Assembly: GCA_047619065.1 (NCBI GenBank)
Contig: JBLHNA010000014.1
Span: 14,863-78,862 of the forward strand
Direction: 5' to 3'
Length of the DNA: 64,000 bases
Source: Desulforhopalus sp.
GTDB lineage: Bacteria > Desulfobacterota > Desulfobulbia > Desulfobulbales > Desulfocapsaceae
Positions within the stretch are counted from its first letter, which is position 1. Each line of letters opens with the position of its first letter. Below the pieces are notes generated by a model. It was not told where the DNA came from, made no database searches, and saw only the letters and a list, made by a program, of their open reading frames with translations. Made by a program: the position numbers and the translations under genes. Of this stretch, positions 38,881 to 49,540 are shown one piece after another.

Positions 38881-40243
38881 TAACAACAGGAGGTGATAGG
38901 GGGCAGTATAGAATCTCAGACAAAACAACACTAAGTTAGTAATAACAGAATATTCTTTTACAACTACTGGAAGTTCGAAAAACGACATTTTGCGACAATG
39001 ATCTAAAAAGAGATCTATTGGCAATTTAAATGATTGAGTCAATTCTGCATATTAAGCTTACTGACCAGGTTATCTCAGCAATTGATAGTTGAATGTAGCA
39101 TTGCCACAACGAGGCTAATCAATGTTGAATTACGCTCCAACGAAAGGTATTTCCTGATCAGGTATTCTCAGAAACTGAGGCTTCCGTTTAACCTTGCCAA
39201 ATCGAAGATAAGCAGTCTTGCCTTTCCCTTTAGTTTGAGATGTTTCCTGTCCATTTCAGAAATAACTCCTCATGAAGGTAAATTGAACAGATTTTAGTGC
39301 CTCAAACGGCAGTAGATACGTCTTTTGCGGTGTGACTTTACCTTACCAGAATTTCTTGCAAAACATTAAACTGCTCCTGCAGCACCTACCTTTCTGCTCG
39401 TTTTCGAATGATAGAGGGGGCACCTTTCTCCTCTTTTCTTTTGTTTCGTTGATACGGTAATACTGCCAGCCATACCGCCTCACCACTTACTTTTGTGCAG
39501 AAAACATGACGGTGAGCCGACCAATGACCCAGGATATGGAGCTATATTTTGGTGAAGATATAGAGTTGAAGACCTATCTGTCTGGCTGAGTCTTGACAGG
39601 AAACACCTCAAGTTGGAGCTATTGACTCGCTTCGTTACCTTCGACCTGGCAATGTCAAGCCCAACGCTCAGTTACCAAATTTACACTGTCTTTGGTAAGG
39701 TAAAGTCTGCAGTTGCTCCATTTTCCTACAGTTTTAATGAAATGTCGGGTTCTACCTTATCAATGATAAAGTTAACCTACATCCCTTCTTATTTAGTTAA
39801 GATTGCCATTCGCATAGTTTATAGTGTTATTCTTTTGATCGAGTACCATTCCGGGTGGTGCGGATGCCGTGATTAGCCCAAACTCTTTTCCTGTTCAAAT
39901 CTGTATTTGCAACAAAAAATGAGATTGGGCCTCCCTAACTCATGCATAAGAAAGGCATTGATAAAATTTGCTAGGCAATGTGATTTTCCACTCAGCTGAC
40001 AAGCCTGGTGAATTGGTTGTAACGGTTGATGCAAAAAACAACAAGGCAGCCCTGACCATCTGATGAAGGTAGACTCCGAATCTCTTTTTCAAGATCATTC
40101 GTGTCTTATATTTTCACTCGCCATGAAGATTTTAGATTCAAATGTTTGTTATTTGGATTGATATATTTATTTCACAAAGTATAATATAATCAATATGTTT
40201 TCACTGTAATAGCATTCTTTTCTTTTATAGGGTGACTCTACAC

Positions 40244-43200
40244 ATGAAAAACGTCCGCATTTTCATATCCTCTCCAGGCGATGTTGCCGAAGAACGTAAC
40301 CGAGCTAAGCAAGTCGTCGAACAGCTCCGCCGTCGTTACGCCGGTCGGCTAACCCTGGAATCTGTGTTGTGGGAAGATCTTCCCCTTCAGGCAGACATGT
40401 CCTTTCAAGAAGGCATCGATCTTGTCCTCTCCAACGAGCATGGACTCGACATCGCCCTGTTTATCCTCTGGTCACGTCTAGGAACTCCCTTGGGCGCGTT
40501 AATTACCAAAGAAGATGGCACTGAGTACCGTTCAGGTACAGAACGAGAGTTGGACCTGATTCTCCGTGCCAGAGCGCAGGCTAAGGAAAAAACCGGGGAA
40601 AACGACAATCATCCAGTTCGACCAGATATCCTCGTTTACCTCCGCGCCGACGACACCAGCTTTGATGAACGGTTGCGAGGGCATTCGACTGATGAAAAGG
40701 AAAAGCTGATCAATCAAAAGAAACTCGTAGAGCAATTTATTCGCGAAGAGTTTCATGATCCTGATAGCGGCAGCAACATCCGCGCCTATCACTCGTTTAA
40801 TATCCCCACCACCTTCTCTCAAAGGTTACGCGTCCATTTGCAGGAATTGCTCGACAAGATGGTAACTGATATCGAAGGCCAGCCGATTTGGGACATTGAT
40901 CAAAAAGGCCCTCCTTTCCGTGGTTTGGAGTCTTTTGATTACGAACATACTGACGTGTTTTTCGGCCGTGAGGACGAGATTCTTGAAGTTCGCCAAGCCC
41001 TTCGGCAGCAGGCACGAAACGGCTGCGCCTTTGTTCTCATTTCCGGGGCCAGCGGCAGTGGTAAATCCTCCCTCGCGCGTGCCGGAGTTCTTCCCACCCT
41101 CACCAGTTACGAAATCGATGAAAGTATTGTTGGTTGGCGCTATGCAGTGTTTAGCCCCGGACAGGTGGCGGGCGACGGTCTGATTCGTGGCCTTGCACTG
41201 TTTCTGATGAGCAACACGGCCTTGCCCGAACTTCGCAATGATGACCAGACGCTTGATGACCTCACCGAGGGATTAGCCAAGGATCCCGAGGTTACCTACA
41301 AACTTCGAATAAAACAGGCGCTGCAAAAAGCAGCAGAAGACAAGCTGGGAAGTATCCGTCTGGTACTTCTAGTTGATCAGTTTGAAGAACTGTTTACCGA
41401 TCCTCGCATCAAACCCGAGGAACGGGTACTCTTTGTTAATGCTCTCGATGCTCTGGCCCGAAGCGGCATGGTCTGGGTGATGGCCACGGTGCGCAGTGAT
41501 TTTTATGAACGTTGTGAACAACTTCCAGTGCTCATGGCCATGAAGGGAAGCGGTGGCCAGTTTTCCGTCCAGGTCCCTGGGGTTGATGCCCTGCGCCGCT
41601 TGATCACCGAGCCAGCCCGCCTGGCAGGTCTCAAGTATGAAGAATGTGATGGAAAAACCCTTGACAGTGTCATCCTGGATGACGCGTCACAGCATCTTGA
41701 GTTACTGCCACTGCTCGAATATCTGTTGCTGGAACTCTTCCGGGCGCGCACAAAGGATAACGTACTGACCTTTGTTGCATATGAAAACTTCGCGGCATAC
41801 ACCCAGGACGGCCTGAAACTCGGCGGCATCCGGGGCGCACTTGCTAAACGGGCTGAGGAGACTTGGCTCCAAGTCAATTCCAGTGAACCTGTTTTTGCCT
41901 CGGTTATGAAATCACTGATTACCATCGGTGGTGAGGAAGAAGAAAGCGCCGTCCGCCGTACCAGCCCCCTCGCCAATGTCACCGATACCCCAGAAAAATA
42001 TGCCTTTGTCCAAGCCTTTATAGAGGCTCGCCTCTTTGCCACGCAAGGTGAGTCACAGCAAAACGAAGAACAGCTGCAAAGCGATTCACATTTAGAAAGT
42101 GGTTCAAATGAAAAACAAGGGACGAATGCAACCGTTTCCGTTGCCCATGAAGCATTATTTCGAGTGTGGGGCAAAGCAGTCAACTGGATCGAAGCCAACA
42201 CAGAATTCCTCAGAGTGCGAGCCCAGGTCGCTCAACGCATGCAACAAGGAGGTGTCCTCCTGCCGGGTGACCCCCTTTTCGAACGAGCAAGAGCCCAGCT
42301 GACCCAACAACGCGAGAGTTTTGATGGGAAACAAGTTCTATTTATTGAAAAAGCGATTGCTAATGCCGAGCGGAAAAAAAAGCGCGCCAAAAAAATTCGA
42401 CACTCAGTCATCGCCGGGTTGCTCCTCCTGACACTTGCTGCGCTGGGAGGTATGGGGTTGGCGCGCCTTGAGTCAGGTAAATCTAAGAAAATCACTACTG
42501 AAACCCAACTTCGAGAAGCCAAGTTTACTTGGCTCCCACGCGCCAAAAACGCAACAATTAACAGGATATTTCCACAAAACGTTCTTTACGCCGGTCGTGC
42601 TCTCAGTTTCAGGGGCTATGGTTTTAATAAGCTTTCTCCAGAAGAACAAATTTCTATTGAGAAGCAATTCCCCAAACTTTTTGTCTTTGCTGACTATCGA
42701 GAATTGCATCAAGACCTCCGACAGCAGATAGAAGGGCACATAAAACCCTTGCTGCCGATATGGACAAGTCCAGTGACTAATCACCACAAGTCATCTGTTA
42801 ACAGCGTGGCCTTCAGCCCGGATGGCAACACCCTGGCAAGCGGAGGTGGGTACGAGGACAATATTATCAAGTTGTGGGATGTTGTCTCCGGCGATGTGCT
42901 GCACAGTTTAAGTGGACATACGGGATCTGTCAACAGCGTGGCCTTTAGCCCGGATGGCAAAACCCTGGCAAGCGGAGGTGGGTACAAGGACAATATTATC
43001 AAGCTGTGGGACGTGGCCTCCGGTAAAGAGATAGGCAGTTTAAGCGGACATATGAGATCTGTCAACAGCGTGGTCTTCAGCCCGGATGGCAAAACCGTGG
43101 CAAGTGGCAGTGGGGACAAAATCATCAAGTTGTGGGATATTGCCTCTGGCAAAGAAACAGGCAGTTTAAGCGGACATACGGGTTCTGTCGCCAGCGTAGC

Positions 43201-45946
43201 CTTCAGCCCGGATAGTAAAACCCTGGCAAGCGGAGATGAGTACAAGGACAATATTATCAAGCTGTGGGACGTGGCCTCCGGTAAAGAGATAGGCAGTTTA
43301 AGTGGACATACGGGATCTGTCAACAGCGTGGCCTTCAGCCCGGATGGCAACACCCTGGCAAGCGGAGGAGGGTACGAGGACAATATTATCAAGCTGTGGG
43401 ACGTGGCCTCCGGTAAAGAGATAGGCAGTTTAAGTGGACATACGGGATCTGTCAACAGCGTGGCCTTCAGTCCGGACGTTAAAACTCTGGTAAGCGGTAG
43501 TAGTGACAAAACCATCAAGCTGTGGGATTGGGCCTCCGGTAAAGAGATAGGCAGTTTAAGCGGACATGGGGGTACTGTCACCAGCCTGGCCTTTACCCTT
43601 GATGGTAAAACTTTGGTTAGCGGCAGTGATGACAAAACCATCAAGCTATGGGATCTGACTAGCGGCAAACAGAAAGGTATTTCAAACGGATATGAATCTA
43701 ATCTCATCAGTGTTACCTTCAGCCCTGATGGTAAAATCCTGGCAAGCGTGCGTGAAGACAAAACTATCAAGCTATGGGATGTGGCCAGCGGCAAAGAGAA
43801 AGGGACTTTAAACGGACATAGGTCTAATCTCACCAGCGTGGCCTTCAGCCCGGACGGTAAAACCCTGGCAAGCGGCAGTAGAGACAAAACCATCAAGCTA
43901 TGGGATCTGGCCAGCGGCAAAGAGCAAGGCAGTTTAAGCGGCCATGGGGATACTGTCACAAGCGTGGTCTTTAACCCGGATGGAAAAACCTTGGCTAGTG
44001 TCAGTTGGGACGATACTATCAAGCTATGGGATGTTGTCTCCGGCGATGTGCTGCACAGTTTAAGTGGACATATGGGAGATGTCCGCAGTGTGGCCTTCAG
44101 CCCGGATGGAAAAACCCTGGCAAGCGGCAGTGCTGACGATACCATCAAGCTATGGGATGTGGCCTCCGGTAAAGAGAAGGGTAGTTTAAACGGACATGTG
44201 GAAACTGTCACCAGCGTGGCTTTCAGCCCAGATGGTGAAACCCTGGCAAGCGGCAGTATAGACACTAGCATCAAGCTGTGGGATATGACCACAGGAAAAC
44301 AGAAAGGTAACTTAAGCGGACATGGGGATACTGTCACCAGCGTGGTCTTCAGCCTGGATGGAAAAATTCTGGCAAGTGGCAGTTTGGACAAGACAATCAA
44401 ACTGTGGGATCTGGCCAGCGGCAAAGAGCAAGGCAGTTTAAGCGGCCATGGGGATACTGTCACCAGCGTGGCCTTCAGCCCAGATGGTAAAACCCTGGCT
44501 AGCGGCAGTGAGGACAAGACAATCAAACTGTGGGATATTGCCACCACCAAAGAGCAAGGTAGTATAAGCGGACATGGTGGGGTGCGTTTTGTCCTCAGCG
44601 TCGCCTTCAGCCCAAATGGCGAGACCCTAGCAAGTGGCTGTTTGGACAATACCATCATGCTGTGGTGGGATTCGGATACCGGCAAAAATACTATCAGTTT
44701 AAGCGGAAATGTGGGTATTGTCACCAGCGTCACCTTTAGCCCAGATGGCAATATCCTAGCAAGCGGGAGTAGAGACAATACCATCAAACTGTGGGACGTG
44801 ACCTCCGGTAAAGAGATAGGCAGTTTAAGCAGACATACGGAACCTGTTAACAGCGTCGCCTTCAGCCCAAATGGCGAGACCCTAGCAAGTGGCAGTGAGG
44901 ACAATACCATCATGCTATGGGATTGGGGCTCAGGCAAAGAAACAGGCAGTTTAAGCGGCCATGCGGATTCTGTTCGTAGTGTGGCTTTCAGCCCGGATGG
45001 AAAAACCCTGGCAAGCGGCAGTATGGACAAAACCATCAAGCTATGGGATTGGGGCTCAGGCAAAGAAACAGGCAGTTTAAGCGGCCATGCGGATTCTGTT
45101 TGTAGTGTGGCTTTCAGCCCGGATGGAAAAACCCTGGCAAGCGGCAGTATGGACAAAACCATCAAGCTATGGGATTGGGCCGCTGGCAAAGAAACAGGAA
45201 GCTTAAGCGGACATACGGAACCTGTTAACAGTGTGGCTTTCAGCTCGGATGGCAAAACCCTGGCAAGCGGCAGTATGGACAAAACCATCAAGCTGTGGGA
45301 TTGGGCCTCTGGCAAAGAAACAGGAAGCTTAAGCGGACATACGAAAACTGTTAACAGCGTGGCCTTCAGCCCGGATGGAAAAACCCTGGCAAGCGGCAGT
45401 ACGGACACTAGCATCAAGCTATGGGATGTGGATGCAGACTATCACTTCAATTTGTTAGGATATTTTGTCAACGAATGGTACGAATTTGACCAAGAGACCG
45501 GCGATGTAATCCCTGCAACTCCTCTCAGTAATCTCTACGGGTCGAAAGATTTTGGATTTCTCAACGTGGGTGCTTGGACGCACGTTGGTGTCTTGCAAAG
45601 TGCCAAAACTCTTGAAGAACAAAACCGCCGTCTCTATAACCACTACCTCTATAGCAACGGGGCGCTTGGTGCCTTAGCCCTTCTTGACCAACCCATGGAC
45701 GAGAAACCCGATGCCACCCCACTCGCCGCCTACGCAGCCGCACTTTTTACCCAAGACGGCCAACAAGATCGAGCCCGCATTTTTTTCGACCGCTTGCGGT
45801 TCACGAAATGGGGCCGGCAAAACCTTGCCTCAAAGGAAATGATCGATCGATTGAATATAGACGATGCCACGACAATATCATTGAAACAGTTGCTGCTTGT
45901 GGCAAATCAAACTAATGGACCATTGGAATCAGGAGCTGAAAAATAG
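40244..45946 (+). CDS. Giant (1901 aa) STAND-type protein. Domain order: DUF4062/TIR-like N-terminus, P-loop NTPase, single TM helix, 21 WD40 blades, ~170-aa unknown C-terminal domain.
   Basis: VRIFISSPGDVAEERNRAKQVVEQL (DUF4062-type start). PPFRGLESFDYEHTDVFFGREDEI followed by Walker A GASGSGKS (41045-41068) and Walker B-like LVLLVDQFEELF. KKKRAKKIRHS-VIAGLLLLTLAALGGMGLA (TM, 42407-42463). 21 repeats of the (S/N)VAFSPDGKTLASGS.DKTIKLWD type. Confidence 0.9.
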   Translation: MKNVRIFISSPGDVAEERNRAKQVVEQLRRRYAGRLTLESVLWEDLPLQADMSFQEGIDLVLSNEHGLDIALFILWSRLGTPLGALITKEDGTEYRSGTERELDLILRARAQAKEKTGENDNHPVRPDILVYLRADDTSFDERLRGHSTDEKEKLINQKKLVEQFIREEFHDPDSGSNIRAYHSFNIPTTFSQRLRVHLQELLDKMVTDIEGQPIWDIDQKGPPFRGLESFDYEHTDVFFGREDEILEVRQALRQQARNGCAFVLISGASGSGKSSLARAGVLPTLTSYEIDESIVGWRYAVFSPGQVAGDGLIRGLALFLMSNTALPELRNDDQTLDDLTEGLAKDPEVTYKLRIKQALQKAAEDKLGSIRLVLLVDQFEELFTDPRIKPEERVLFVNALDALARSGMVWVMATVRSDFYERCEQLPVLMAMKGSGGQFSVQVPGVDALRRLITEPARLAGLKYEECDGKTLDSVILDDASQHLELLPLLEYLLLELFRARTKDNVLTFVAYENFAAYTQDGLKLGGIRGALAKRAEETWLQVNSSEPVFASVMKSLITIGGEEEESAVRRTSPLANVTDTPEKYAFVQAFIEARLFATQGESQQNEEQLQSDSHLESGSNEKQGTNATVSVAHEALFRVWGKAVNWIEANTEFLRVRAQVAQRMQQGGVLLPGDPLFERARAQLTQQRESFDGKQVLFIEKAIANAERKKKRAKKIRHSVIAGLLLLTLAALGGMGLARLESGKSKKITTETQLREAKFTWLPRAKNATINRIFPQNVLYAGRALSFRGYGFNKLSPEEQISIEKQFPKLFVFADYRELHQDLRQQIEGHIKPLLPIWTSPVTNHHKSSVNSVAFSPDGNTLASGGGYEDNIIKLWDVVSGDVLHSLSGHTGSVNSVAFSPDGKTLASGGGYKDNIIKLWDVASGKEIGSLSGHMRSVNSVVFSPDGKTVASGSGDKIIKLWDIASGKETGSLSGHTGSVASVAFSPDSKTLASGDEYKDNIIKLWDVASGKEIGSLSGHTGSVNSVAFSPDGNTLASGGGYEDNIIKLWDVASGKEIGSLSGHTGSVNSVAFSPDVKTLVSGSSDKTIKLWDWASGKEIGSLSGHGGTVTSLAFTLDGKTLVSGSDDKTIKLWDLTSGKQKGISNGYESNLISVTFSPDGKILASVREDKTIKLWDVASGKEKGTLNGHRSNLTSVAFSPDGKTLASGSRDKTIKLWDLASGKEQGSLSGHGDTVTSVVFNPDGKTLASVSWDDTIKLWDVVSGDVLHSLSGHMGDVRSVAFSPDGKTLASGSADDTIKLWDVASGKEKGSLNGHVETVTSVAFSPDGETLASGSIDTSIKLWDMTTGKQKGNLSGHGDTVTSVVFSLDGKILASGSLDKTIKLWDLASGKEQGSLSGHGDTVTSVAFSPDGKTLASGSEDKTIKLWDIATTKEQGSISGHGGVRFVLSVAFSPNGETLASGCLDNTIMLWWDSDTGKNTISLSGNVGIVTSVTFSPDGNILASGSRDNTIKLWDVTSGKEIGSLSRHTEPVNSVAFSPNGETLASGSEDNTIMLWDWGSGKETGSLSGHADSVRSVAFSPDGKTLASGSMDKTIKLWDWGSGKETGSLSGHADSVCSVAFSPDGKTLASGSMDKTIKLWDWAAGKETGSLSGHTEPVNSVAFSSDGKTLASGSMDKTIKLWDWASGKETGSLSGHTKTVNSVAFSPDGKTLASGSTDTSIKLWDVDADYHFNLLGYFVNEWYEFDQETGDVIPATPLSNLYGSKDFGFLNVGAWTHVGVLQSAKTLEEQNRRLYNHYLYSNGALGALALLDQPMDEKPDATPLAAYAAALFTQDGQQDRARIFFDRLRFTKWGRQNLASKEMIDRLNIDDATTISLKQLLLVANQTNGPLESGAEK
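42781..45432 (+). repeat. Array of 21 tandem WD40-encoding units (126 nt; four units of 132 nt), several near-identical at the DNA level
   Basis: Units 44915-45040 and 45041-45166 differ at one base (44975 C vs 45101 T). ~80 nt at 43261-43340 is repeated exactly at an offset of +132. A ~45-nt stretch, GGGATGTTGTCTCCGGCGATGTGCTGCACAGTTTAAGTGGACATA, occurs at ~42876 and ~44026. Confidence 0.95.
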
Positions 45947-46111: not shown

Positions 46112-46330
46112 ATGATGTCTATTATTGTTATCAAGGGCGAGAGCATGATCCTGACCTGGAGCGTGGATAGCACCGCTCGCTTCTGGGATATCCAATGGGC
46201 TATGGGTGACACTAACGATCCTAAATTTGTCCATGACCTCCACCGTGAAAAACTTGTCGGCGCTCCACCACCAACGCCCTGGGATACCCTTAAGTCTCTG
46301 CTATGGCCTTCAAGCACGCAGAGTAGATAG
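46112..46330 (+). pseudogene. Orphan, diverged WD40-blade fragment in the gap between gene 1 and gene 2
   Basis: The 72-aa ORF contains ILTWSVDSTARFWDI (D-x-T-x-R-x-WD blade end). It has no RBS and no propeller context. Confidence 0.35.
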
Positions 46331-46368
46331 TTACAGGCAAACAGATACCGTCAAAACAGGTGAATCAG

Positions 46369-48339
46369 ATGAACGTTTTTATAGTCCGCCCCTTTGGCGA
46401 AAAAGAGGGGATCAACTTTGACGAGGTCGAAAATCTGCTGATTCAGCCAGCTCTAAAGAGCATTGATGTCCATGGCAGCACGACCGGAGTAATCGTCAAG
46501 GCTGGCAATATTCGCCATGACATGTTCCAATTGCTGCTTGTGGCAGATCTGGTTATTGCCGATATCTCGATCCACAACGCCAATGTCTTTTACGAACTTG
46601 GCATTCGCCATGCCCTCCGTGATAAACGGACGATTATGATCCGCTGCGGCAGCAATGAAGTTCCCTTCGATCTGAAAACTGATCGCTACCTTTCATACGA
46701 CAAAAACGACCCGGCCGAGTCTCTTCCTGTACTGATCCAATCATTACAAGATACGATTGCCTCTCAGGATAAGGACAGCCCAGTGTTTCAGTTACTGCCT
46801 GATCTTGAGGCGCAGGATCAGAGCCGGTTTATAGTGGTGCCCAAGGATTTCCAGGAAGAAGTTGATCTCGCTCGGATACATCAGTGGCAGGGAGATTTGA
46901 AGCTGCTGGCAGAGGAAGTGCAAGGTCTCTTTTGGGCAAGAGAGGGACTCCGCATTATAGGTAGAGTTCAATTCAAATTACAGGATTATGAGGGAGGTCG
47001 TGATACCTGGGAGCAGGTTCGCAAGGTGTACCCGGATGTCCTTGAAGCCAACCTGCTTCTCGGCACCATATATCAACGCCTAGGTGATCTGGCCTGCTCT
47101 GATCAGGCAATAGAGAGGGTTCTCTCTCAAAAGTGCAGTTCAACGAGTGACCGGGCCGAAGCATATGCCCTGCGTGGCCGAAATAGTAAAATACGCTGGC
47201 AGGCCGATTGGTTAAACAGTCCTGAACCGGATGTACCCCAAAATGCCCTGCGCTCCCCCCATCTGCTGCAGGCCTTTACAGCCTACGAGCAAGGCTACCT
47301 TCAGGATCTTAACCATTATTATTCAGGAATTAATGCACTGGCCCTACTGGTGGTTCTCACCGACCTTGCCGCCCGTTTTCCTGAGGTCTGGGTGACCTGT
47401 TTTGACGAGGACGATGAGGCTATTCAACGGCTCAAATACCTGGGTAAGCGGTGTACTGAATTGGCAAGCACCGTCACTCTTTCTCTCAAAGCGGAGAAGG
47501 ATCGCTTAACGCGTTCGGAGCAGGAAGATGTCTGGTTCGATATCACCTGTGCTGATCTTCGTTGTTTGACACTGACGCGCCCCGAACGGGTGGCGCAAGC
47601 CTACCGCACTGCCTTTAATAAAATTGACCCCTTCTCATATGAGTCTGCAGCCCAGCAGTTGCAAATGTTAGAAACTCTAGGTGTCCGAAAGGACAATGTG
47701 CAGGCGGCAGTCCAGGAGATAACTGTCCTGCGGCCGACAGCCGAGCGAAAGGTAAAAAAGGAGCCCCATGTGTTGCTTTTTACAGGGCATATGATTGATC
47801 AGGATGACAGGGAGCAACCGAGGTTCCCTGCTGCAAAGGAATCAGCAGTGCGGCAAGAGATTGAAAAACATGTTGCAGCCGAACTGTCACGGGTTGAGGG
47901 AGAGCTTATCGGGGTGACAGGCTGTGCCTGCGGAGGGGATATCTTGTTTCATGAAGTTTGTGCCGATCTGGGGATTATAACCAAAATATATCTCGCTCTG
48001 CCCAAGGATCAGTACATTGTTACCTCTGTGCAACATGGCGGACCACAGTGGGTAGATCGGTTCAATCAGCTTAACCAGCGTCTTGATTCTCGTATACTCT
48101 CAACTACAAAAGAACTGCCACGGTGGCTTCAAGAGAAAGACAAATACTCCTTCTGGCAACGCAACAATCTCTGGACATTTTATAATGGTTTGGCTCTTGG
48201 CGAGGCAAATATGTCTTTGATTGCCCTTTGGGATGGCCGGGGGGGCGATAGCCCGGGCGGCACTGAAGACATGGTAAAACACGCCAGATCCCATGGGGCC
48301 AAGGTTATTATCATTGACATAAACACGATATGTTCATGA
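46369..48339 (+). CDS. Three-module protein: N-terminal TIR-like/flavodoxin-like domain (DUF4071-type, from memory), central TPR-like helical region, C-terminal SLOG/LOG-like Rossmannoid domain
   Basis: MNVFIVRPFGEKEGINFDEV...ADLVIADISIHNANVFYELGIRHAL. The helical middle has LLLGTIYQRLGD and YYSGINALALL. The C-terminus has VLLFTGHMID...GVTGCACGGD (47920-47940) and SPGGTEDM (48250-48270), resembling the LOG PGGxGTxxE motif. AGGTGA RBS before the ATG at 46369. Confidence 0.75.
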   Translation: MNVFIVRPFGEKEGINFDEVENLLIQPALKSIDVHGSTTGVIVKAGNIRHDMFQLLLVADLVIADISIHNANVFYELGIRHALRDKRTIMIRCGSNEVPFDLKTDRYLSYDKNDPAESLPVLIQSLQDTIASQDKDSPVFQLLPDLEAQDQSRFIVVPKDFQEEVDLARIHQWQGDLKLLAEEVQGLFWAREGLRIIGRVQFKLQDYEGGRDTWEQVRKVYPDVLEANLLLGTIYQRLGDLACSDQAIERVLSQKCSSTSDRAEAYALRGRNSKIRWQADWLNSPEPDVPQNALRSPHLLQAFTAYEQGYLQDLNHYYSGINALALLVVLTDLAARFPEVWVTCFDEDDEAIQRLKYLGKRCTELASTVTLSLKAEKDRLTRSEQEDVWFDITCADLRCLTLTRPERVAQAYRTAFNKIDPFSYESAAQQLQMLETLGVRKDNVQAAVQEITVLRPTAERKVKKEPHVLLFTGHMIDQDDREQPRFPAAKESAVRQEIEKHVAAELSRVEGELIGVTGCACGGDILFHEVCADLGIITKIYLALPKDQYIVTSVQHGGPQWVDRFNQLNQRLDSRILSTTKELPRWLQEKDKYSFWQRNNLWTFYNGLALGEANMSLIALWDGRGGDSPGGTEDMVKHARSHGAKVIIIDINTICS

Positions 48340-48388
48340 GATTAATGACTACAGACACCATTTAATTTATAGCAAAGGGAAAATCGAC

Positions 48389-49540
48389 ATGACACTTGCA
48401 GAAAAAATCAAAGCACCTGGCAGCAAGAAAATTCTGGCCCTTGACGGTGGTGGTATTCGCGGAATCATGACTGTTGAAATTCTGGCAGGTATTGAAGCAA
48501 TTTTGCGAAAATCCCTGGACAATCAGGCTCTTGTTCTCGCTGATTATTTCGATTTCATCGCCGGTACAAGTACGGGTGCAATAATCGCTACTTGCCTTTC
48601 CCTTGGCATGAGCAGTTCAGAAGTGAGTGATTTCTACGAGAAAAGCGGCGAAGCGATGTTTGATAAGGCATCGCTGTTAAAGCGCTTCCGTTACAGTTAT
48701 GAAGATAAAAAGCTTGCAGCAAAACTTCGGGAAGTCATTAATGGCGGATCAGACAAGCCAGATATCACTCTTGGTACCGATAGGCTGAAAACTCTGCTGC
48801 TGATGGTAATGCGAAATGCCTCCACAGATTCCCCATGGCCCATTTCAAACAACCCCGGTGCAAAATACAATCAACTTGAAAGAAGAGAGCAATCTACAGG
48901 TGATTGCAATCTCGATATCCCACTCTGGCAACTGGTGCGTGCCAGCACAGCTGCACCTGTGTATTTTCCTCCAGAAGTCGTAAAGGTCGGTGGAAAGGAA
49001 TTTGTCTTTGTCGATGGCGGCATTACCACCTATAACAACCCCGCTTTTCAGGCGTTTCTCATGGCAACGGTTAAACCCTACAACCTTAACTGGTCGACCG
49101 GCGAAGATCAATTTCTGGTCGTTTCAGTCGGCACCGGCACCAGTCCCGATGCCAATGCAGACCTCGATTCTTCAGATATGAACCTGCTTTATAATGCCGG
49201 CTCCATACCTTCGGCGCTCATGTTTGCCGCACTTAACGAACAGGATTTTCTCTGTCGGGTTTTCGGTAAATGTCTGGCAGGAGACAAACTTGATAATGAG
49301 GTTGCTACAATGATCGGGGCGGAGGGAGCAGGTCCGATAAACCCGAAACTCTTTACTTATTTACGCTACAACGCCGAGCTAACAGTAAAGGGACTTACTG
49401 ATCTCGGTCTCCCAGAAATCAACCCCAAAGACGTCCAGAAACTTGATTCAGTGAAACATATGAAGAAACTGCAGCTTATCGGGCAGAAGGTGGTGGAAAA
49501 AAAGATGCACTTAGAGCACTTTGCCGCATTTACCGACTAA
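48389..49540 (+). CDS. Patatin-like phospholipase
   Basis: Oxyanion DGGGIRG (48443-48463), nucleophile elbow GTSTG (48563-48577), catalytic Asp in FVDGG (Asp 49013-49015). Starts 49 nt downstream of the previous gene. Confidence 0.92.
   Translation: MTLAEKIKAPGSKKILALDGGGIRGIMTVEILAGIEAILRKSLDNQALVLADYFDFIAGTSTGAIIATCLSLGMSSSEVSDFYEKSGEAMFDKASLLKRFRYSYEDKKLAAKLREVINGGSDKPDITLGTDRLKTLLLMVMRNASTDSPWPISNNPGAKYNQLERREQSTGDCNLDIPLWQLVRASTAAPVYFPPEVVKVGGKEFVFVDGGITTYNNPAFQAFLMATVKPYNLNWSTGEDQFLVVSVGTGTSPDANADLDSSDMNLLYNAGSIPSALMFAALNEQDFLCRVFGKCLAGDKLDNEVATMIGAEGAGPINPKLFTYLRYNAELTVKGLTDLGLPEINPKDVQKLDSVKHMKKLQLIGQKVVEKKMHLEHFAAFTD

Follow-up and report, generated by a model that had tools for sequence, protein, structure and literature searches.

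The two co-oriented genes at positions 46369 to 49540 of the window (the whole 64,000-nucleotide stretch of Desulforhopalus sp. DNA analyzed here) are best explained as a two-gene abortive-infection (anti-phage) module of the TIR-DrHyd-SLOG world, closest to type VIII Thoeris and without a TIR; we judge the chance that this is correct to be about even. Gene A encodes a three-part hub protein consisting of a predicted DrHyd N-glycosidase, a TPR-S region and an SLOG domain, and gene B encodes a CapV-like patatin phospholipase, both identified by sequence, structure and homology. A module of this kind is already in the computational catalogue, Patatin-Tpr and YspA-Tpr assemblies being among those compiled in Burroughs & Aravind 2020, and the novelty claimed in the first-pass annotation was overstated.

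Gene A (46369 to 48339, on the forward strand as are all the features given here) has a product of 656 amino acids, defined by its ORF and translation, an exact-sequence look-up, homologues and an AlphaFold2 model (pLDDT 85.2, pTM 0.78). The look-up returned MFT5699880.1 in NCBI, from a Desulforhopalus sp. MAG, with the sole annotation 'TPR repeat protein'. The ORF lister placed the start at a GTG at 46360. We have taken the ATG at 46369, since the resulting terminus MNVFIVRPFG agrees with the N-termini of all the homologues. More than 3,500 homologues were found, and the best 120 of these are near full-length, mostly with ~50% identity, and are spread over several phyla. The three-part anatomy that had been proposed from the sequence is present by Pfam, models and Foldseek, and all the motifs quoted for the two proteins were found in the translations.

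The N-terminal domain (aa 1–135, 46369 to 46773) is a DNPH1/MilB/CMP-hydrolase-like DrHyd domain of the TIR class, as judged from the model, a PADLOC profile, homology and alignment with DNPH1. Strands and helices alternate over aa 1–131 of the AlphaFold2 model. The PADLOC 'Effector TIR' profile PDLC00733 matches 18 of 18 A-family members with a best E of 8e-11, and ThsI-like DUF4071 proteins have a homologous domain. The alignment with DNPH1 is sub-significant (E 0.6–1.3), yet it is in register and places E76 of gene A on the Glu of the YELG motif. The predicted catalytic motif NANVFYELGIRHA (46576 to 46614, with N70, N72 and E76) is based on conservation, on this alignment and on the spacing in BcTpr. 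N70, A71, N72, Y75, E76, L77, G78, R80 and H81 do not vary among 38 A-family members or in five TIR-associated DUF4071 proteins, and A82 is nearly invariant within the A family. The spacing of NANxxYELGxRHA agrees with N80-P81-N82-x3-E86 of BcTpr, where N82A and E86A each lead to loss of NADase activity, cADPR-isomer formation and defence (10.1101/2023.05.26.542521). The domain is thus a DNPH1/MilB-like N-glycosidase by sequence, with its catalytic motif intact and its activity predicted. The first-pass annotation had called this terminus TIR-like. That holds to the extent that DrHyd and TIR belong to the same TIR-DrHyd-SLOG class (PMC9503650), and an invariant Glu is present in the domain. 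A TIR proper was rejected, because no TIR family of Pfam matched the domain and it is of the DNPH1/MilB type.

An all-helical region follows (aa 138–454, 46780 to 47730; model helices with pLDDT >90). It includes the TPR-S sensor repeats (aa 206–327, 46984 to 47349), which scored 50.3 bits in Pfam (cut-off 27.6, E 3.9e-13). The Pfam MAP3K_TRAF_bd match is weak in gene A (17.6 bits against 24.1, E 2e-3) and stronger in its relatives (E 1e-9), while Foldseek with the whole gene A model returned OGT, SPY and other TPR superhelices. In tblastn, a region of A running from residue 4 to residue 322 or 434 matched plasmid-encoded proteins with the annotation 'TRAFs-binding domain-containing' or 'DUF4071' (E 1e-16 to 1e-22); the genes of these proteins adjoin TIR and DUF4231/SLATT genes on plasmids of E. 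coli, Acinetobacter, Rhizobium and Agrobacterium. The connection to DUF4071 and the ASK kinases, which the first-pass annotation had suggested, is real. The N-terminal regulatory region of animal ASK1/MAP3K5 likewise combines a DrHyd-like domain (DRHyd-ASK) with a TPR array of the same type after it, and Burroughs & Aravind have put forward a bacterial origin for the ASK signalosome. Gene A differs from ASK1 in lacking the kinase, PH and SAM domains and in keeping the catalytic Glu motif in its DrHyd domain, and its predicted function is anti-phage rather than MAPK signalling.

The C-terminal domain (aa 463–656, 47755 to 48336) probably folds as an SLOG-class Rossmannoid, with moderate structural support from the domain model (pLDDT 88.8, pTM 0.88), Foldseek and hhalign. 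The best Foldseek matches in the PDB were ShosA (8zva), the DprA-like member of the ShosTA system, and DprA (3uqz, 4ljl, 5mll and 4ljk) with probability 0.92–0.99, TM 0.36–0.47, 13–16% identity and E no better than 1e-3. This is a likeness at the level of the fold only, and the partners and context of those proteins are different; no sequence-profile match of the domain to DprA or ShosA was obtained, and no Pfam SLOG family exceeded its threshold on gene A. The signature comprises FTGHMIDQDDREQPRFP (47779 to 47829), GVTGCACGGD (aa 515–524, 47911 to 47940) and SPGGTEDM (aa 628–635, 48250 to 48273). Both glycine-rich nucleotide loops are strictly conserved, and the polar residues H474, D477, R481, R485, D524 and E529 are invariant. 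Of the earlier description of a LOG-like SLOG domain, the SLOG class has been borne out. The LOG-like part has been rejected, since the domain is DprA/YspA-like and matches no LOG family by Pfam or Foldseek; the LOG motif PGGxGTxxE appears as PGGTxD in the gene A family.

Gene B (48389 to 49540, 383 aa) is MFT5699881.1, annotated 'RssA'. It was classified using Pfam (Patatin, 90.8 bits against a cut-off of 27.7), PADLOC (CBASS-type phospholipase effector profile, E 1.4e-43) and NCBIfam (CBASS_lipase, 116.7 bits, which is under the equivalog cut-off of 200). The patatin catalytic set is complete, as the first reading had stated: GGGIRG (aa 20–25, 48446 to 48463), GTSTG with Ser61 (aa 59–63, 48563 to 48577) and DGG with Asp209 (aa 209–211, 49013 to 49021). 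Gene B resembles CapV of CBASS in its patatin fold and in the catalytic set GGGxRG, GxSxG and DGG, but its locus lacks a CD-NTase, and its control is predicted to occur via the SLOG domain whereas CapV binds cGAMP directly. The spacer between the genes (48340 to 48388) is exactly 49 nt, has a Shine-Dalgarno-like AAAGGGAAAA just 5' of the gene B ATG and contains no terminator-like hairpin.

A relation between SLOG and patatin is also seen in Actinomycetota, where an SLOG of the A type is joined to a patatin in a single protein of about 560 aa. These fusions are annotated solely as 'patatin-like phospholipase family protein', and we found no experimental study of them in the literature. The family gave 5,590 matches, and the best 120 of these are all about 510–670 aa, most being 540–580 aa. 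On a Rhodococcus plasmid a DrHyd-TPR-S gene (479 aa) is followed by an SLOG-patatin gene (560 aa). In hhalign the N-terminal domain of the latter aligns with the SLOG of A (probability 99.2, E 1.4e-19); the Patatin domain of the same protein has a score of 88.7 bits. The gene boundary there lies before the SLOG, whereas in the A–B pair it lies after it. The signature GH(M)xDxxxRxxPRFP / GGAxGxD / WxGxxGDGPGGT is the same whatever the fusion partner, and was found in all SLOG-patatin fusions examined. Gene B is 42–47% identical to the patatin half of the fusions and 58–62% identical to other downstream-positioned partner patatins (loci L034 and L064), and the patatins of all three contexts form one clade. 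Of eight fusion loci, four have DrHyd-TPR-S proteins as the partner and the other four have TIR or ThsB_TIR in their flanks instead.

Of 38 informative metagenomic loci, 21 have a patatin directly beside A, no more than 255 nt away in every case and on the same strand in 19, so the two are kept as neighbours elsewhere, as the first-pass annotation expected. Taken with the Pfam scores and the >3,500 homologues of A, this indicates that the pairing is not chance. No TIR is found in the available flanks of 16 of the 21 patatin-paired loci, and one is nearby in the other five. Patatin is absent from the remaining 17 loci, so gene A can apparently work in its absence, and in about 7 of the 38 there is no obvious partner. 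Over 80 loci, about a dozen have TIR genes near A. Other A-family proteins carry TIR_2, DUF4231/SLATT_1 or SIR2_2 with AAA directly after the SLOG, and in some an NB-ARC or nSTAND1 NTPase is fused C-terminally. The family recurs with TIR, SLATT, SIR2, CHAT, STAND and toxin-antitoxin genes in variable neighbourhoods, and also on conjugative plasmids. Within the window, our own HMMs found no further TIR, SLATT or SLOG among ORFs of at least 50 aa. Pfam analysis of 44 other ORFs or segments, all 150 aa or longer except one of 72 aa, revealed transporters, metabolic enzymes and one nSTAND1-WD40, the families considered being the first 25 of 45. The nSTAND1-WD40 NLR-like gene adjoins the A–B pair, and the window is otherwise metabolic. 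The earlier statement that the window holds no signal synthase agrees with both searches, for the TIR, SLATT and SLOG HMMs and for the 25 of 45 Pfam families listed.

Type VIII Thoeris consists of the TIR protein ThsB and ThsI, a 'CMP hydrolase'-TPR effector turned on by canonical cADPR, which the TIR produces in a phage-dependent manner; one TIR operon may serve both ThsH and ThsI effectors (Yirmiya et al. 2025, bioRxiv 10.64898/2025.12.03.692087). The plasmid arrangement of DUF4071, TIR and DUF4231/SLATT corresponds to the type VIII (plus type VII) layout of that study. The opposite has been claimed for BcTir/BcTpr of Bacillus cereus, which we treat as equivalent to type VIII: in a single preprint BcTpr itself is reported to make a cADPR isomer, and it binds cADPR with Kd = 1.9 μM (Liu et al. 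2023, 10.1101/2023.05.26.542521). Residues 4–434 of A are homologous to the TIR-adjoining proteins, the NANxxYELGxRHA core is invariant in both sets, and both have the Pfam TPR-S region. However, A is only about 25% identical to ThsI-like proteins, its conserved neighbour is a patatin gene, and neither the operon nor the window has a TIR gene. A also has an additional C-terminal SLOG of about 195 aa, which is absent from the ThsI-like plasmid homologues examined (about 400–450 aa) and from the 415-aa BcTpr. The predicted logic of A–B, an SLOG that takes a nucleotide signal and turns on a lethal enzyme, is that of ThsA (SIR2-SLOG) in type I Thoeris, and one A-family protein has SIR2_2 after its SLOG. 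Yet the SLOG clade is different, with ThsA outside the top 50 structural matches of the A domain, the effector is a lipase on a separate polypeptide, and there is no ThsB at the locus.

The direction of signal flow is where other explanations compete. It is possible, though unlikely, that both proteins are effectors only and that the signal, cADPR or a related molecule, is made on infection by a ThsB-like TIR encoded elsewhere in the genome. The TPR-S, the SLOG or both would sense it, unleashing the patatin and a DrHyd activity that depletes nucleotide or NAD+. ThsI, the homologue of the first 430 aa of A, is triggered by exogenous canonical cADPR, and ThsH and ThsI can sit in one TIR operon; the TIR genes that about a dozen of the 80 loci have near A, the fused TIR_2 of some A proteins and the ThsB_TIR genes beside SLOG-patatin fusions point the same way. 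Yet TIR is missing from the window and from the flanks of most patatin-paired loci (16 of 21), and DrHyd-TPR-S replaces it at three or four fusion loci. Two receivers recurring across phyla with no transmitter would be less parsimonious, self-contained operons being the norm in defence. A mechanism with no diffusible messenger seems to us more doubtful still. Here the TPR-S would bind a phage protein, freeing the DrHyd NADase or nucleotidase from autoinhibition as the main effector; the patatin would be a second effector activated by protein–protein contact only, and the DprA-like SLOG would serve as a checkpoint by binding ssDNA or a common cellular nucleotide. This would suit the structural matches to ShosA and to DprA, which binds ssDNA, and the common role of TPR domains in binding proteins. 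The loci where A has no obvious partner suggest a self-sufficient sensor-effector, and the NB-ARC and nSTAND1 fusions resemble the sensor/effector arms of NLR-like proteins. Against it, the SLOG glycine-rich loops are strictly conserved and identical in TIR-partnered SLOG-patatin fusions, which argues for a small ligand of the Thoeris type. SLATT, which is defined by its association with SLOG/SMODS signalling, is fused after the SLOG, and BcTpr binds cADPR.

We consider it improbable that the SLOG is itself the signal-making enzyme, replacing the missing TIR by LOG-like N-glycosidic chemistry, with the TPR-S sensing the product and DrHyd and patatin as effectors. The short ThsI-like proteins have a TIR and no SLOG while the long A proteins have an SLOG and mostly no TIR, the domain has the six invariant polar residues, and some SLOG clades are enzymes, some being predicted makers of ADPR-derived signals (PMC9503650). 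But this SLOG also occurs fused to patatin next to bona fide ThsB TIRs, which would make a further signal generator superfluous, and the lack of LOG-family matches and the change to PGGTxD also weigh against it. A lipase with no role in immunity, either housekeeping or stress-regulated and served by a nucleotide-metabolizing regulator, would fit the generic names 'TPR repeat protein' and 'RssA' and the metabolic remainder of the window. This is very improbable, given the defence-associated neighbourhoods and conjugative plasmids of the A family and the anti-phage effector profiles that give gene B its best scores.

Returning to the self-contained module, the SLOG domain is most likely the switch that gates the patatin lipase, because sister lineages have this SLOG covalently fused to a patatin of the same clade and because SLATT, SIR2 or TIR effectors directly follow it in other A-family proteins. 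DrHyd-TPR-S would be the upstream partner, standing in for the TIR, as it fills the place of a ThsB-type TIR beside SLOG-patatin fusions. That the fusions are partnered by either TIR or DrHyd-TPR-S favours the direction of signal flow proposed in the first reading, short of proof. By analogy, the nearest characterized homologue, ThsI, would point to the opposite flow; since it is reported to receive TIR-made cADPR, the idea that gene A makes the signal as well as sensing it is plausible but unproven. In such a module the TPR-S region would register infection, and the DrHyd domain would cleave NAD+ or another nucleotide to a product that may be of the ADP-ribose type, such as a cADPR isomer. 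Binding of this product to the SLOG, and possibly to the TPR-S, would give feed-forward activation, and the liganded SLOG would activate the patatin through direct contact. The patatin would then degrade membrane phospholipids and kill the infected cell, with the consumption of nucleotide or NAD+ deepening the arrest.

Genes A and B lie on the forward strand of the window, gene A (46369..48339) encoding a protein of 656 aa and gene B (48389..49540) one of 383 aa. We have placed the start of gene A at the ATG at 46369, which gives the N-terminus MNVFIVRPFG that is common to all homologs; the ORF lister gave a GTG at 46360. The gap between the genes is exactly 49 nt, as the first-pass annotation had it, and includes a ribosome-binding-like stretch AAAGGGAAAA. 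No terminator-like hairpin was found within it. Every motif picked out earlier is present in the translations at the place claimed. In A, GVTGCACGGD occupies aa 515-524 and SPGGTEDM aa 628-635; in B, GGGIRG occupies aa 20-25, GTSTG aa 59-63 and DGG aa 209-211. Both sequences occur verbatim in one Desulforhopalus sp. metagenome-assembled genome. In the databases A is labeled 'TPR repeat protein' and B 'predicted acylesterase/phospholipase RssA', with nothing further.

We built an AlphaFold2 model of A from 38 homologs (pLDDT 85.2, pTM 0.78). Strands and helices alternate in the N-terminal domain (aa 1-131), the middle is all helical (aa 138-454), and the C-terminal domain is of α/β type (aa 467-655). 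The middle includes a Pfam TPR-S match at aa 206-327 (50.3 bits; cut-off 27.6), and TPR-S matches 35 of 38 members of the A family (the homologs of A) at E <= 1. Foldseek with the whole model returned TPR superhelices alone, such as OGT and SPY, and a PDB sequence-profile search with full-length A gave no significant match. The suggestion that the N-terminal and TPR parts resemble DUF4071 holds. A aa 4-322/434 match plasmid proteins annotated as 'TRAFs-binding domain-containing' or 'DUF4071' with E 1e-16 to 1e-22 (tblastn), but A's own Pfam score for MAP3K_TRAF_bd (the former DUF4071) is 17.6 bits, below the threshold of 24.1. Relatives exceed that threshold, with 38.3 bits at locus L002 and precomputed matches elsewhere.

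The N-terminal domain had been described as TIR-like. TIR, DrHyd and SLOG domains form one class (PMC9503650), and at that level the description stands, but the Pfam TIR, TIR_2 and ThsB_TIR models match neither A nor its 38 relatives, and the domain appears rather to be DrHyd. Of the A-family members tested, 18 out of 18 match the PADLOC 'Effector TIR' profile PDLC00733 (best E 8e-11), in its C-terminal part only. In single-sequence Pfam scans of the 38 relatives neither the N-terminal nor the C-terminal domain was assigned to a family, and a PDB sequence-profile search with the N-terminal domain of A found nothing significant. In the PDB profile alignment the A-family sequence ADLVVaDlsxxNANVfYELGiRhA is set against ADVVVAEVTQPSLGVGYELGRAVA of DNPH1, placing E76 of A opposite the Glu of the DNPH1 YELG motif, with E values of 0.6-1.3 that are non-significant alone. 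On widening the profile with sequences like ThsI, the type VIII Thoeris effector, DNPH1 was reached only at E 0.6. A match to 8rc5 'ORF016' (E 0.003) corresponds to a short NANxFY stretch and is regarded as spurious. The motif core N70-A71-N72-x-x-Y75-E76-L77-G78-x-R80-H81-A82 is invariant when the A family is aligned with TIR-associated proteins. Within the A-family alignment N70, N72 and E76 are all invariant, and E76 is the predicted catalytic Glu. The spacing N-x-N-x3-E equals that of BcTpr, the Bacillus cereus counterpart of ThsI (N82/E86). On these alignments the N-terminal domain is apparently a catalytically intact DrHyd glycosidase of the DNPH1/MilB-like kind.

Modeled alone, the C-terminal domain reached pLDDT 88.8 and pTM 0.88. 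Its nearest Foldseek neighbors in the PDB are ShosA and the DprA of three species (probability 0.92-0.99), with TM 0.36-0.47 and E no better than 1e-3. Both ShosA and DprA belong to the SMF/DprA-LOG (SLOG) superfamily, and the proposed SLOG Rossmannoid fold is thus borne out. LOG and ThsA are absent from the top 50 Foldseek neighbors, and a PDB sequence-profile search with the domain gave no significant match. The domain has the glycine-rich nucleotide loops of the superfamily, of the GGxxGxD kind behind strand 2 and PGGxGT-like behind a later one; in the A family G522, G523 and D524 are invariant, and the stretch GDGPGGT is nearly so. Pfam YAcAr gave a single match in the A family, weak at E 0.2, and matched a Rhodococcus SLOG-patatin fusion with E 4.9e-4. 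The C-terminal domain appears to be a SLOG domain of the DprA/YspA type. The earlier term 'SLOG-like' is therefore correct for the class, but not in its reference to LOG; a LOG-type cytokinin enzyme was rejected, there being zero LOG matches by Pfam or among the top 50 of Foldseek.

B scores 90.8 bits against the Pfam Patatin model (cut-off 27.7) and carries the oxyanion GGGxRG, the GxSxG Ser and the DGG Asp. This is the full patatin set, in agreement with the earlier claim. It matches the PADLOC CBASS-type phospholipase effectors with E 1.4e-43, and scores 116.7 bits against the NCBIfam CapV equivalog CBASS_lipase, under the cut-off of 200. No SMODS or CD-NTase was among the Pfam families listed for the window, and none lies beside A-B, where the neighbors are an nSTAND1-WD40 gene, FMN_red and DSBA (Pfam). 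Because no CD-NTase was found there and B falls below the CapV cut-off, we reject membership of CBASS. Our own TIR HMM found no TIR among all window ORFs of at least 50 aa, and TIR was not among the Pfam families listed for the flanking genes and 34 further window ORFs. As far as these families and ORFs go, the results agree with the first-pass observation that the window has no CD-NTase or other signal synthase.

The nSTAND1-WD40 gene (40232-45946, forward strand; Pfam) encodes an NLR-like protein of 1,904 aa, in which an nSTAND1 NTPase (E 8e-80) and ~21 WD40 repeats follow an N-terminus weakly resembling DUF4062 (E 0.003). The gene lies upstream of A, ending 422 nt before it, and together with A-B makes a small island amid metabolic and transport genes. 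Since its homologs lie near A-type genes at two other loci only (L058 and L002), we have set it aside as a third component and treated it as a separate NLR-like system. Fusions of nSTAND1 to A (P0269) and of NB-ARC to A (P0303) exist, and given these the STAND gene may be functionally linked with A. Between the two genes is a 72-aa ORF (46112-46330, forward strand) including STARFWDIQW, with zero Pfam matches. To judge from its sequence, it is probably a stray WD40 blade, left behind when repeats turned over at the STAND gene's 3' end. An antisense ORF of 878 aa (42781-45417, reverse strand) lies wholly within the WD40 part of that gene, and is most likely a spurious frame held open by the repeats.

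The A family is large. An initial search gave > 3,500 homologs, the best 120 of which are near full-length, mostly ~50% identical and drawn from several phyla. At E <= 1e-30 there are 527 clusters at 50% identity, with lineages that include Acidobacteriota, Desulfobacterota, Gammaproteobacteria and others. Neighborhoods were compared in 80 metagenomic loci with full-length relatives, reduced to 38 non-redundant loci whose flanks reach 1.2 kb or more on either side. In 21 of these 38 (55%) the A gene has a patatin of B's clade within 255 nt, and the two genes are conserved neighbors. The patatin is usually upstream on the same strand. A downstream position, again on the same strand, is seen in the window, in one of the 38 loci (L064), and in two contigs with shorter flanks (L031 and L034). 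TIR was not found in the available flanks of 16 of the 21 patatin-paired loci. Loci without patatin have other conflict-system neighbors, such as TIR proteins, SLATT proteins and small stand-alone SLOG paralogs, and ~7 loci have no recognizable partner. Patatin-less loci often encode neighbors that themselves bear TPR-S (L033:2961-8477, L043:9159-14675, L036:3-3851 and L063:4401-5816). These are large LCAT/DUF7379 lipase-CHAT-TPR-S proteins of 1,282-1,838 aa and one α/β-hydrolase-TPR-S protein of 471 aa, and are alternative lipase or protease effectors sharing the TPR-S module.

Several loci have individual features. The stand-alone SLOG paralogs (L038:6090-6707, L050:543-1160, L058:3001-3612 and L073:2766-3428, all on the reverse strand) are ~180-220 aa in length and lie just upstream of the patatin-A pair, from which they are divergently transcribed. 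Their signature is divergent (AGRRVD and SSAACGAD, with no GDGPGG loop), and they might serve as decoys, regulators or signal-degrading enzymes. In a Pyrinomonadaceae locus (L003:3573-5992) a second, shorter patatin gene and a Cas4/PD-(D/E)XK nuclease gene precede the patatin-A pair on the same strand. The Terriglobales protein at L002:4228-6555 combines RyR, TPR-S, SLOG and an adenylate/guanylate cyclase catalytic domain, and is flanked by TIR genes. Its SLOG is homologous to that of A (E 1.3e-29, own HMM), and TPR-S-SLOG is here a portable module carried on a different N-terminal domain with a cyclase. The Rhizobium leguminosarum plasmid CP050566.1 (L090, 33.7-40.3 kb) encodes a stand-alone SLOG, a short DrHyd-TPR-S, DUF4231/SLATT and DUF3380 together with a patatin that shares 59% identity with B and another DUF4071 protein, 444 aa in length; TIR annotation is absent in the stretch shown. 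In the 24 IMG/VR viral or prophage contigs (L102-L125) the similarity to A is limited to the DrHyd domain (aa 4-145, 25-46% identity); the genes could be prophage-borne ThsI-like defense genes or phage nucleotide-modifying hydrolases. As none of the 24 encodes the full three-domain protein, carriage of A by phage was rejected.

In sister lineages SLOG and patatin form a single polypeptide. On a Rhodococcus megaplasmid a gene for a 479-aa DrHyd-TPR-S protein is followed immediately by one whose 560-aa product matches the C-terminal domain of A over its first 180 aa (hhalign probability 99.2, E 1.4e-19, 30% identity). These 180 aa retain GHMxDxPDRxxPRFP, GGAxGxD and WDGxxGDGxGGT, and the remainder of the product is Patatin (88.7 bits). 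A search for such fusions gave 5,590 matches. The best 120 are ~510-670 aa long, most of them 540-580 aa, and seven of these 120 have a precomputed Pfam match to YAcAr (YspA-type SLOG). Such split relatives, with SLOG fused to patatin, are found in Actinomycetota. We examined the partner in eight fusion loci. It is DrHyd-TPR-S in four (a short form in three, a full A-like protein in one), and in the other four the fusion is flanked by TIR/ThsB_TIR genes, directly adjacent in two. The SLOG signature of the fusions is identical in kind with either partner, and the patatins of the three contexts form one clade, in which B shares 42-47% identity with the patatin part of the fusions. The gene boundary thus shifts between DrHyd-TPR-S-SLOG with patatin and DrHyd-TPR-S with SLOG-patatin, and the SLOG domain is therefore predicted to contact and gate the lipase. 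Other effectors are fused directly after SLOG in A-family proteins, namely TIR_2, DUF4231/SLATT_1, and SIR2_2 with an AAA ATPase.

The plasmid DUF4071 proteins are 400-450 aa in length and adjoin one to three TIR genes, often with DUF4231/SLATT too, on plasmids of E. coli, Acinetobacter, Rhizobium and Agrobacterium. This layout is that of type VIII (with type VII) Thoeris. In type VIII Thoeris infection is reported to lead the TIR to make canonical cADPR, which sets off the toxicity of the effector, the 'CMP hydrolase'-TPR protein ThsI (bioRxiv 10.64898/2025.12.03.692087). The same pair had been described earlier in Bacillus cereus as BcTir/BcTpr. BcTpr was reported as an NADase and maker of a cADPR isomer, with N82 and E86 of its MilB-like domain essential, and as binding cADPR with Kd = 1.9 μM (bioRxiv 10.1101/2023.05.26.542521). 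The two preprints conflict. In Liu et al. 2023 (10.1101/2023.05.26.542521) the signal is made by BcTpr and not by the TIR, and NAD+ is depleted by BcTpr, whereas in Yirmiya et al. 2025 (10.64898/2025.12.03.692087) the TIR is the signal maker and ThsI the responder. The TIR-less A-B loci bear directly on this disagreement. A shares the DrHyd/CMP-hydrolase and TPR build of ThsI, with the catalytic motif invariant, but it has an additional SLOG domain, and no TIR (ThsB) gene was found in the A-B operon or the window. Having no TIR, the locus is outside Thoeris as defined.

A-B belongs to the DrHyd-TPR-S 'core Tpr' family. As cited in bioRxiv 10.1101/2023.05.26.542521, Burroughs & Aravind 2020 listed TIR, YspA, patatin, LSDAT or calcineurin as neighbors of core Tpr, with patatin in 4 of 78 operons. 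The pair stands for a SLOG-bearing, patatin-paired and mostly TIR-less branch of this family. As far as the searchable literature and the portion of that catalog quoted in it show, the branch has been cataloged computationally already and has had no experimental test. A-B is thus less novel than the first-pass annotation implied. The TIR-centered 2025 survey would have missed the branch by design.

By analogy with the role of SLOG for SIR2 in ThsA, the SLOG domain of A would be the switch of the lipase. In the window it would have to act in trans, contacting B. Since DrHyd-TPR-S stands where a TIR stands beside SLOG-patatin, it would be the best candidate for the upstream component, sensing infection and supplying the ligand. 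This might most simply be an NAD+-derived product of ADPR type made by the DrHyd domain, and killing of the infected cell would fall to the patatin. We consider the chances of this whole package, comprising SLOG switch, DrHyd-TPR-S sensor and ligand source, and killing by patatin, to be about even. The most novel form of it, which we think less likely than not, is that A is an autonomous, TIR-independent module. Upon infection its DrHyd domain would make an ADP-ribose-type signal, its own SLOG and TPR-S would receive this and self-amplify, and SLOG would activate the separate patatin.

In the main rival a TIR gene located elsewhere supplies a cADPR-type signal, which A and B alike receive. Such a scheme would accord with ThsI's published part as an effector; for A-B we find it somewhat doubtful. 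Direct sensing of a protein with no messenger, combined with a DprA-like checkpoint for nucleic acid or nucleotide, is unlikely. That the SLOG domain is itself the signal-making enzyme seems very improbable, and a non-immune role for A-B can scarcely be credited.

Thoeris-type immunity has hitherto been defined by its TIR transmitter. The A family retains the receiver and effector parts (TPR-S, SLOG, and patatin, SLATT or SIR2) and mostly drops the TIR. It therefore poses the questions of whether DrHyd can replace TIR as an immune transmitter, and whether SLOG gates a lipase. The SLOG-patatin fusions provide an easy biochemical handle, and thousands of genes labeled only 'TPR repeat protein' or 'patatin-like phospholipase' can be better annotated. 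If A is autonomous, this would be the first immune signaling pathway with a DrHyd transmitter and the first patatin gated by an NAD-derived signal, and it would help to settle the conflict between the two preprints on the signal maker of type VIII Thoeris. If DrHyd is indeed the transmitter, a second enzyme superfamily would make immune nucleotides, and the N-terminal region of animal ASK1 would descend from a signal-making or signal-sensing module.
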